Origin: Candidatus Bathyarchaeia archaeon
Lineage (GTDB): Archaea; Thermoproteota; Bathyarchaeia; 40CM-2-53-6; CALIRQ01
Assembly: GCA_038847005.1 (NCBI GenBank)
Contig: JAWCOP010000001.1
Coordinates: 1-25,625 of the forward strand
Direction: 5' to 3'
Length of the DNA stretch: 25,625 nt
Below, in pieces: positions 21,461-24,400 of the stretch. Below the pieces are notes generated by a model. It worked only from the letters and a program-made list of their open reading frames with translations. It ran no database searches and was not told the origin of the DNA. The translations under genes and the position numbers were made by a program. Within the stretch, counting starts at the first letter, position 1. Each line of letters begins with the position of its first letter.

Positions 21461-24400
21461 GGCCCGGCATGATACGCCACCTGACGGATGGCTTGGCTTG
21501 GGCGCCGAGGAAGGGCGTGGCAAGCTGCGATAAGCTCCGGGTAGGCGCATGCAGCCTTAGATCCGGAGATGCCCGAATGGGACTTCCCGCCGCGGGAAAC
21601 CGCGGCGCTCCCTTTTGGGAGCGGGAACCCCCCGAACGGAAGCATCCAAGTAGGGGGAGGAGGAGAAACCAATAGGGATTCCCTGAGTAGCGGCGAGCGA
21701 AAAGGGAACAGCCCAAACCGAACTCGCGCGGGAAACCGCGCGTGGATGTGGGGTTGAGGCCCGGTCGCATCCTCGCCCGAGAAGCCGAAGTGGCCTGGAA
21801 GGGCCCGCCCAAGAGGGTGACAGCCCCGTAGGCGCAATCGGGAAGGATCTGGACCGGTGTCCTAGAGTACTCCGCCTTCGTTCTGGCGGAGGAAGCTGGG
21901 GGAAAACAACCTCCAAGGCTAAATACGTCCCAAGACCGATAGCGCACTAGTACCGTGAGGGAAAGCTGAAAAGCACCCCGGAAGGGGGGTGAAAAGAGCC
22001 TGAAATCAGGTGGCCATACGCGTGTAGGGCCCGAAAGGGCAGATCCTCCCAAAAGGAACCCGCGGCGACGCGGTAGTACGTTGGGAGGGGACCAGGGTCC
22101 TACGATCCGTCTTGTAGCACGGGCCGGGGAGTTCACCTCCGCGGTGAGGTTAAGGGCCTTCGAAGCCCGAAGCCGTAGGGAAACCGACATGCCCGCAACG
22201 CCCGAAAGGGCGCGAGGGGCGGGATCCGAAAGGGTCCGGAATCGCGGGGGTGAGGCTAGAAACCGAGTGATCTAGCCCCGGGTAGGGCGAAGCCGGGCGA
22301 AAGCCCGGTGGAGGCCCGAAGGGGTGCTGACGTGCAATTCGCTCCCATGACCTGGGGCTAGGGGCAAAAGACCAATCTAACTCGGTGATAGCTAGTTCCC
22401 GCCGAAATATCTCGCAGGATAGCCCGGCCGGAGGTTGGCGAAGGGGTAGAGCACTGATTGGGGAGCAAGGGGCCGAAAGGCCCCACTTCCCATTCAAACT
22501 CCGAATCCTTCGCCGCCGCAGATGGCCGGAGACGGGTGTGGGGGGTAAGCTCCCATGCCGAGAGGGGAACAACCCAGACTGGGGTTAAGGCCCCAAAATC
22601 CTGGCTAAGTGCAGAAATCGAAGGCCGTCCCCAACCTAAGACAGCTGGGAGGTAGGCTTAGAAGCAGCCATCCTCCAAGCAGTGCGTAACAGCTGACCAG
22701 CCGAGGTTGGGGGCGCTGAAAATTAACGGGGCTAAGCCAGGTGCCGATACCCCAGGGCGGGGCCGAAAGGCCCCGACCGGTAGGCGGGCGTTGTGGCCGG
22801 GCGGAAGCTGGGCCGTGAGGTCCAGTGGACTGGCCACAAGTGCAGATCCCGGCGGTAGTAACAGCCTAGAGGGGTGAGAATCCCCTCCGCCGAAAGGGCC
22901 AGGGTTCCCCGGCAATGGTCGTCAGCCGGGGGTAAGTCGGTCCTAAGGCAAGCCTTAACCGAGCTTGCCGAAAGGGAAACCGGTTAAGATTCCGGTACCG
23001 CGGGGGTACTCGCGGCAACGCAAGCCGACGGGCCGACGCCTCAGGATAGGCCGAGTGGGGCCGTCGCCCCATTTAACTCCCGAAGCCCGGGGAGTGCCGT
23101 AATGGCGAGATCCGGGCGAATGGAGGAATAGCCGTCCGTTATAGGATGGTTCGGCCGATTCCGGGGGCCAATGAAAAGGCCCGCCGGAGGGATCCTCCGC
23201 GACCGTACCTAGAACCGACACAGGTGCCCCTAGGTGAGAAGCCTAAGGCGTGTCGGGTGGAACCTGGGGCGAGGGAACTCGGCAAATTGGCCCCGTAACT
23301 TCGGGATAAGGGGTGCCTGGGGTCTTGGCCCATGGCCGGGATCCTAGGTCGCAGTGACCAGGGGGGCGCGACTGTTTAATAAAAACATAGGAAGCCGCAA
23401 GTCCGAAAGGATTTGAACGGCTTTTGAATCCTGGCCAGTGGCGGTACCTGAAACTCGGGTCCAACCGAGCTAAGGGCCGCTAAACGCCGGGAGTAACTCT
23501 GACTCTCTTAACCGAGCGGGATCCGCTTGGGGAGACAGGTAGCCAAATGCCTTGTCGGGTAAGTTCCGACGTGCATGAATGGATCAACGACGTCCCCGCT
23601 GTCCCCGCCCAGGGCCCGGTGAACCCACATAACTTGGATGAACAGTCCAAGGACCCCCAGCGGGGCGAGAAGTCCCCGTGGAGTTTTACTGCAGCTTGTC
23701 GCTGGGGTACGGCCGTGGATACAGAGCGTAGGTGGGAGCCGTCGAGGCCGGCCCCTCCGGGGGCCGGCGGAGGCGACAATGTAACACCACCTATCTGCAG
23801 CCGTATCCCTTACCGGGGGCCTCCCCCCGGGACAACGGCAGGTGGGCAGTTTGGCTGGGGCGGCACCCCCTTGAAAAGATATCAAGGGGGCCCAAAGCTC
23901 GGCTCATCCGGGACAGAAACCCGGAGTAGAGGGCAAGGCCAAAAGCCGGGCTGACTGGATCCTTGCCAGCAAGGGATCCAGGGGCGAAAGCCGGGCCTAG
24001 CGATCATTCATGTCCCCATTGTTGGGGGCTGGATGTGACAGAAAAATTACCCCGGGAGTAATTGGCTCGTCTCCTCCGAGAGTCCCCATCGACGAGGAGG
24101 ATTGGTTCTCCGTCGTCGTCCCTTCCCATCCTGGGCCCGCAGCAGGGCCCAAGGGCGCGGCTGTTCGCCGATGAAAGGGGAATGCGAGATGGGTTTAGTC
24201 CGTCGCGAGACAGGACGGATTCTACCTGCTGGGGGTGCTGGTCGCCTGAGGGGAGGGTACCCCTAGTACGAGAGGAACGGGGTATCGCGGCCTCTAGTCT
24301 ACCGGTTGTCCGACAGGGCAGTGCCGGGCAGCCACGCCGTCGGGGATAAGGGCTGAAAGCATCTAAGCCCGAAGCCCCTCCCGAAAATAGGCGGCCGATC

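Follow-up and report, generated by a model that had tools for sequence, protein, structure and literature searches.

A divergent, probably functional peptidyl-transferase centre in the 23S rRNA of the Bathyarchaeia order 40CM-2-53-6

Can the peptidyl-transferase centre (PTC) of the large ribosomal subunit, which is usually treated as nearly invariant, be altered at many positions at once and still belong to a working ribosome? This question is raised by the 23S ribosomal RNA (rRNA) gene on contig JAWCOP010000001.1 of a Candidatus Bathyarchaeia archaeon (assembly GCA_038847005.1). The stretch of DNA analysed here, referred to as the window, comprises 25,625 nucleotides (nt) and represents the entire contig 1 of a metagenome-assembled genome (MAG) of 1.08 Mb, which consists of 213 contigs and is 78% complete. 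The 23S rRNA gene is located on the plus strand at 21460..24547, where it matches the Rfam model RF02540 over its full length (model positions 1-2987) with 2800.9 bits and hence clears the gathering cut-off of 50 bits. Considering the data described below, the gene very probably encodes a working 23S rRNA, whose PTC possesses a functional, order-wide and partly compensated alternative second shell.

The unchanged catalytic layer and the replaced second shell

Positions were numbered by alignment to an E. coli 23S rRNA (L159:379-3282), and the covariance-model alignment of domain V places the window's GGGAGUAAUUGG opposite the consensus GGGGAUAACaGa and the window's UCUCCGUCGUCGUCC opposite the consensus ACcUCGAUGUCgGcU. 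All features described in the following reside on the plus strand. Within the PTC ring strand 2057-2063 (23668..23674), A2062U was identified at 23673, with the flanking G2061 and C2063 being unchanged. The ring strand 2447-2454 (24057..24064) carries G2447A (24057), A2448G (24058), C2452U (24062) and A2453U (24063) and retains U2449, A2450, A2451 and G2454. The third strand, which includes the start of helix 90 (2497-2511; 24107..24121), harbours seven changes, i.e., A2497U (24107), C2499U (24109), U2500C (24110), A2503U (24113), U2504C (24114), G2509U (24119) and U2511C (24121), next to the unchanged residues C2498, C2501 (24111), G2502, G2505, U2506 and C2507. Two further changes locate to 24183..24189, namely C2573U (24183) beside A2572 and C2579A (24189), the latter being the partner of U2509. 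In the 2583-2605 region (24193..24215), G2583, U2584, U2585 and A2602 were found to be unchanged, and the helix 93 pair A2589-U2605 was replaced by U-A (24199/24215). The P loop (G2251-G2253, 23858..23860) is unchanged and the A loop (U2552-C2556, 24162..24166) shows U2554 and U2555 as in its universal form, G2553-U2555 being unchanged; the sarcin-ricin loop AGUACGAGAGGAAC (24265..24278) was read from the sequence and is intact. The residues that contact the substrates (G2061, C2063, A2450, A2451, C2501, G2505, U2506, G2553, G2583-U2585 and A2602) are all unchanged. A preliminary description of the locus had listed most of these changes, and the alignment to the E. coli 23S rRNA identified all of its positions and coordinates as correct; likewise, its statement of an intact catalytic core, P loop, A loop and sarcin-ricin loop was borne out. 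Three features had escaped it, namely U2511C, C2573U and the swapped strands of helix 89, and its assignment of U2563G (24173) holds with respect to the change itself but not with respect to the near-universal status of the position, since T, C or G occur there within the order.

An alignment with 59 canonical sequences of Thermoproteota comprises 237 columns without variation among the latter; the window departs from them at 17, of which 16 are located in the PTC ring, in helix 89 or in the 2589-2605 pair. This clustering exceeds chance. Seven of the 17 differences are contributed by the distal stem of helix 89 (24072..24098), the strands of which are swapped (UCCUC...GAGGA). The swap is order-specific and retains pairing, the Rfam alignment flagging zero broken pairs in helix 89; elsewhere, i.e., in the 59 canonical Thermoproteota rows and the other lineages shown, this stem reads GCGGG/CCCGC with an occasional single-base difference. 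Pairing is also kept by U2509-A2579 and U2589-A2605, as had been proposed before and as the alignment confirmed. Each of the 37 rows possessing U2509 also has A2447, and U2589 and A2605 occur jointly in ten rows and in none singly. In the families f8 and f10 of the order, the 2454-2498 pair has changed in a compensated manner from G-C to A-U.

Two side observations concern these elements. Within helix 90, part of the canonical-PTC family f22 (G115, G120, G125, G130, G133 and G156) possesses A2509-U2579, so that three Watson-Crick types (G-C, U-A and A-U) were identified for the 2509-2579 pair in all. Within the A loop, U2554/U2555 (24164-24165) is the form found in order 40CM-2-53-6, and most other sampled Bathyarchaeia and Thermoproteota possess C2554, many of them also C2555; the C2554/C2555 variant was reported to stabilise the subunit (Nissley et al. 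2024, bioRxiv 10.1101/2024.11.12.623245).

Based on these data, the PTC of the window is suggested to be built from two layers. The substrate-touching layer, to which A2451, U2506, U2585, A2602 and G2583 belong as well as the P loop, the A loop and the C2063-A2450-C2501 triple, has remained universal, and a supporting second shell, formed by positions 2447, 2448, 2452, 2453, 2497, 2499, 2500, 2503, 2504, 2062 and 2573, has been replaced around it, whereby the adjoining 2509-2579 pair and the helix 89 stem have been altered alongside. This second shell shapes both the entrance of the tunnel and the cleft of the A site, and may fold into an alternative packing that holds the catalytic bases in their usual place, as was seen for the set of changes reported from Pyrobaculum. 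At the level of individual contacts, it is possible that the pyrimidine pair C2452-U2504 has been reversed to U2452-C2504, that the contact between A2448 and U2504 has been replaced by one between G2448 and C2504, and that 2454 and 2498 form a Watson-Crick pair, which changes from G-C to A-U in f8 and f10. As the catalytic layer is untouched and the release factor aRF1 possesses a normal GGQ motif, the chemistry at the site should be conventional. In aRF1, both HRAGGQSARRF and NIKS are present, by which an altered release factor was ruled out. A compensation by the ribosomal protein uL3 was likewise not supported, as the alignment of uL3 from 66 Bathyarchaeia genomes revealed variation of its site-reaching finger (GPW[N/H/T]P...) within all groups, with no order-specific change; the sole order-specific column nearby within these 66 genomes is an exchange from R to Q following 'EYNK'.

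Gene copies, RNA evidence and distribution

A divergent PTC could also result from a decayed or silent extra copy of the gene, or from an assembly or binning artefact. The own MAG would leave room for this, as it is incomplete and a second copy could be missing from it; a search of this 78% complete genome identified the 23S rRNA gene of the window as the sole copy. Three independent MAGs of the same genus, which are 93-97% complete, possess the region with 98-99% identity and gave a single 23S match apiece, meaning that the second, canonical 23S copy considered in the preliminary description was found neither in the own MAG nor in these relatives. Full-length score and compensated helices likewise speak against decay, as do the conservation of the core set in seven families and the recovery of exact contigs from independent runs. 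The latter derive from Logan assemblies: a hot-spring DNA run and a hot-spring metatranscriptome each yielded a 170-nt piece that covers 24045-24214 with zero differences. In addition, a relative is represented by a contig of 304 nt from an RNA run on a microbial mat; of its 14 differences, none concerns a PTC site. Among the contigs and reads of the runs, which had passed a 95% likeness filter, no alternative letter was reported at the PTC positions. Exact contigs together with conservation across seven families exclude an assembly error and render a pseudogene very unlikely; signs of the latter (truncation, broken helices, absent conservation or a canonical copy elsewhere) were not seen, the own genome being 78% complete. 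A decayed copy or an artefact is thus scarcely credible as an explanation. The earlier suggestion of a functional alternative rather than a decayed copy was therefore upheld by fixation in 19 genomes, full length, kept pairing, single copy and exact contigs.

Fixation was deduced from the order to which the window belongs. Its name is taken from the GTDB r220 strings given in a published supplement for the same-order genomes VBAX01 and VBBS01 (c__Bathyarchaeia; o__40CM-2-53-6). All 19 of the 19 order genomes with a usable 23S rRNA, representing the families f1, f2, f3, f4, f6, f8 and f10, possess the core set U2062, A2447, G2448, U2452, U2453, U2499, C2500, U or C at 2503, C2504, U2509:A2579, C2511 and U2573; U2497 is confined within the order to f1, f2, f3 and f6. 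Across the order, domain V otherwise differs by 8-16% from that of the window. Most other families of Bathyarchaeia possess a canonical PTC, hence the set is not one common to the whole class, a possibility raised in the preliminary description. Partial sets were found in f24 (U2503 and C2504) and in f26 (A2447, U2452, U2453, U2499, C2503, C2504, U2509 and U2573), and f27 possesses its own mixture of PTC alleles. A soil lineage (MFD03726.bin.2.66/SMAG_U12356) carries only A2447, G2448, U2452, U2453, U2499 and C2504, and the B24/f38 lineage carries a near-full set, but with G2499. A pattern scan of species genomes, which was not exhaustive and whose listed matches were mostly chance ones in bacteria, gave 23S-context matches that, among those listed, all come from archaeal records with a vague label or from such as bear Bathyarchaeota or Bathyarchaeia in their title; other named Bathyarchaeota records among the matches listed contain the motifs as well. 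Within this coverage, the set was found only in Bathyarchaeia and, nearly complete, in B24/f38, the families of which are placed outside the class by the genome taxonomy of the tool used. The set is order-wide and nearly the same in B24/f38, and is hence not peculiar to the source organism.

Several points weigh against an alternative second shell in a working ribosome. The RNA evidence consists of assembled contigs, and DNA may be present in RNA libraries. In run X21, the raw RNA reads are mostly those of other organisms and cover only universally conserved stretches. Reads with a canonical PTC fall below the 95% likeness filter, which makes their absence weak evidence, and the completeness of the own genome, as given above, has to be borne in mind as well. 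For the proposed 2452-2504 swap and the 2448-2504 contacts, the evidence is confined to co-occurrence, and pairwise association tests on the tree provide at most four well-supported independent contrasts, significance being out of reach. With these points taken into account, a working 23S rRNA with a rebuilt second shell is still considered the very probable identity of the gene.

Three consecutive RNA genes on the plus strand of the window were identified by Rfam, the 23S rRNA gene being located within this array between the genes for 16S rRNA and RNase P RNA. The 16S rRNA gene (19019-21291) extends some 800 nt beyond the length of its model (2273 nt versus 1478 model positions), which indicates the presence of inserts, and a 200-amino-acid open reading frame within such an insert (20071-20673) matches the LAGLIDADG_3 homing-endonuclease domain with an E value of 1.1e-6. 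The RNase P RNA gene (24652-24943) follows the 23S rRNA gene at a distance of about 100 nt, like a further member of the rRNA array. Insertions were also seen in 23S rRNA genes. Close to helix 69, the conserved stretch CUUAAGGUAGC is split in the window by 26 extra nt (23511-23536). Of two further genomes of the genus, G001 possesses this insertion and G002 lacks it, as do most relatives; G082 possesses about 31 nt at this site, and in G012 the alignment breaks there, its two matching pieces lying about 790 nt from each other, a distance compatible with a large insert. The site hence looks like a variable intron site. In G015, which belongs to the same order, about 190 extra bases split the 23S match (L016/L023) opposite position ~23919 of the window, possibly representing another intron. 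A further member of the order, G010, possesses two 23S copies (L006 and L021) that differ inside the PTC region, one of them combining U2503 with A2454-U2498 and the other C2503 with G2454-C2498.

Published divergent centres and a proposed order of change

The existence of divergent PTCs as such is established. A survey of GTDB r220 reported them, with up to six positions concerned, from Thermoprotei and Methanomethylicia, and the ribosome of P. calidifontis was solved by cryo-electron microscopy (Nissley et al. 2024). The Pyrobaculum set consists of G2447A, A2453C, U2500C, C2501A and U2504C; C2501A breaks the C2063-A2450-C2501 triple, and the different shell set was found to be absorbed by rearranged base triples and water networks (Nissley et al. 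2024). The Pyrobaculum precedent invoked in the preliminary description therefore exists. It shares with the window the phylum Thermoproteota, the replacement of a second shell, with the catalytic core being unchanged, and the overlap with resistance positions known from halophilic archaea. Three of the five published changes, i.e., G2447A (24057), U2500C (24110) and U2504C (24114), recur in the window, and the Pyrobaculum-type rows sampled here additionally share G2509U:C2579A and, in some rows, A2448G. However, where Pyrobaculum possesses C2453 and A2501, the window possesses U2453 (24063) and retains C2501 (24111), and it adds C2452U, C2499U, A2503U, A2062U, A2497U, U2511C, C2573U and the helix 89 strand swap. 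In terms of ring positions, ten are changed in the window as compared with five reported for P. calidifontis. The carriers differ as well, those of the Pyrobaculum type belonging to Thermoprotei and Methanomethylicia and that of the window to order 40CM-2-53-6 of Bathyarchaeia; the published carriers are hyperthermophiles, whereas those of the window's set appear to include soil and peat lineages. A sample of 40 further Thermoproteota families outside Bathyarchaeia agrees with this distinction, as two divergent kinds of PTC stand out in the Thermoproteota: the window's kind and a Pyrobaculum-like kind with A2447, A/G2448, C2453, C2500, A2501, C2504 and U2509:A2579, the latter in f40, f49-f52, f57, f58 and f60. 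Bathyarchaeia are absent from text and legends of the survey and, in connection with the PTC, from its supplements, and a full-text literature search found no description of a Bathyarchaeia PTC. Hence this kind of divergent PTC is already published, and the allele set of Bathyarchaeia is larger and different, with no description of it found.

Supplementary counts of the same survey, covering about 2,439 archaeal species, document how rare the single alleles are. A2447 was counted in 74 species (3%), G2448 in 445 (18%), U2452 in 371 (15%), U2062 in 242 (10%), U2499 in 616 (25%), C2500 in 206 (8%), U2503 in 84 (3%) and C2504 in 243 (10%), whereby the values for A2447, G2448 and U2452 are shift-corrected; in bacteria, the share of each listed allele is at most 0.25%, each position being more than 99.5% conserved (Nissley et al. 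2024). The correction relates to supplementary file 3 of that work, in which the archaeal rows 2447-2453 seem to be shifted by one, row '2450' giving 99.5% U and row '2453' 84% C; as a consequence of this shift, counts for the true position 2453 are missing. The single alleles are thus minority states in archaea, and their combination is lineage-specific.

The order in which the changes were acquired was approached by co-occurrence in a sample of 102 rows comprising 24 haplotypes. C2504 and A2447 occur together in 39 rows, C2504 alone in two and A2447 alone in none. For C2504 and U2452, the respective numbers are 26, 15 and none, and for C2504 and G2448 they are 28, 13 and one (G2448 alone). 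Likewise, U2573 accompanies U2452 in 24 rows and is never found without it, U2452 occurring alone in two. This nested distribution points to an ordered path, and it suggests that the PTC changes accrued from a starting point of U2504C and G2447A. In a stepwise build of this kind, U2504C would have been acquired with G2447A first, and C2452U, A2453U and A2448G appear only on that background. On the tree of uL3, the order forms one clade with 99% support, and the families f24, f26 and f27 with their partial sets group with it (85% support), which fits a stepwise build-up on the stem. A further coupling, that of A2062U and A2503U, had been hinted at earlier and did not stand, since each change was found without the other in several families: U2062 goes along with A2503 in f17, f36, f42, f44, f54, f34 and f40, and U2503 with A2062 in f24 and f27.

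The same nested pattern is what would be expected from near-neutral compensatory drift, in which the permissive pair U2504C and G2447A is tolerated owing to a short uL3 loop and later changes lock the state. The short archaeal uL3 loop was reported to make such changes tolerable, and E. coli ribosomes tolerate them better when uL3 is shortened (Nissley et al. 2024). The many partial haplotypes of the sample are in line with drift, too, as is the occurrence of the single alleles in 3-25% of the archaeal versus at most 0.25% of the bacterial species. Contrary to this, the full set is strictly conserved despite the 8-16% divergence of domain V, which implies strong purifying selection on the derived state; such selection, however, says nothing about how the state arose. 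As the origin of the alternative second shell, drift is hence a serious possibility, though one that falls short of being probable.

Whether the set arose once was addressed by topology tests, for which the groups were named after the tree had been seen and which, in the case of 23S, rely on about 750 nt. On the 23S tree, with the trait columns masked, a single clade of all U2452/U2453 carriers was rejected (p-AU, i.e., the approximately unbiased test, 0.002), this rejection depending on the MFD/SMAG lineage, which adjoins canonical families on that tree. A clade of the order with this soil lineage alone gave a p of 0.06 (23S), and one of the order with B24/f38 was rejected neither by 23S nor by uL3 (p-AU 0.53-0.61, the uL3 value being 0.6). 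The idea that the set is a second discrete packing solution for the PTC shell, which has been reached more than once (by the order, by B24/f38 and, with a partial set, by the soil lineage), is a tentative one and on balance unlikely. If the origins were independent, this would mean that few alternative stable shell states exist, that these are linked by ordered epistatic paths and that there are natural ribosomes, also in non-thermophiles, whose active-site divergence is twice that of Pyrobaculum.

Possible causes and implications

Several of the bases fixed in the window are known as resistance determinants. C2499U, C2452U and U2500C confer sparsomycin resistance in Halobacterium halobium (PMC13462262), for anisomycin, links were described with G2447A and U2500C, for linezolid with U2500C and U2504C, and for chloramphenicol with U2504C (Nissley et al. 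2024), and A2062U and A2503U make E. coli resistant to macrolides (PMC10146877). The resistance associations that the preliminary description had attached to these alleles are hence in agreement with published papers for sparsomycin, linezolid, anisomycin and chloramphenicol. The nucleotides concerned by laboratory resistance mutations are the same (2062, 2447, 2452, 2453, 2499, 2500, 2503 and 2504); however, those mutations are single, selected in the laboratory and often costly for growth, whereas the window possesses about ten changes that are fixed order-wide and known from sequence alone. Ribosomes of this kind would presumably be poorly sensitive to drugs binding to the pocket, be it as a by-product or by selection. 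The latter was considered as a cause of its own, meaning that the set would have been selected as natural resistance to PTC-pocket antibiotics (anisomycin-, sparsomycin-, chloramphenicol- or pleuromutilin-like) released by neighbouring microbes. This would be compatible with the identity of the site as an alternative second shell, as it concerns its cause. Such selection would be in line with the resistance that several of the fixed bases confer when introduced singly and with the origin of many order members, which by record title are soil or peat MAGs, meadow soil included. Yet hot-spring lineages share the set with those from soil or peat, although their chemical surroundings differ, and since single changes suffice for resistance, ten changes and the helix 89 swap remain unexplained by resistance alone. 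Selection by antibiotics is hence regarded as rather doubtful.

The habitats bear on a further explanation, i.e., adaptation to heat, as was suggested for other rare rRNA variants of hyperthermophilic archaea. The sequence of the window is found mainly in hot-spring metagenomes, the G+C content of domain V amounts to 63% in its genus, and the published divergent centres occur in hyperthermophiles, all of which would fit. The same set is, however, fixed in the soil- and peat-titled members of the order, whose domain V possesses a G+C content of 56-60%; several of the changes swap G or C for U, and the order has the ordinary U2554/U2555 A loop rather than the stabilising C2554/C2555 form. Heat adaptation is therefore very improbable as the cause.

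What is very probably an alternative second shell in a working ribosome is carried by uncultured Bathyarchaeia, close relatives of which derive from hot-spring, soil and peat metagenomes. The set comprises about twice the changes of the structurally solved case and includes the antibiotic-pocket positions 2452, 2503, 2504 and 2062. Such centres may serve the engineering of ribosomes as templates already tested by evolution, and may help to examine how far drug pockets depend on second-shell bases. Real genes of this kind would be lost in pipelines that treat an rRNA with unusual active-site bases as an error or a pseudogene. Above all, natural, lineage-wide variants of the oldest catalytic site, otherwise taken as nearly invariant, show which of its parts can be rebuilt, and in what order.

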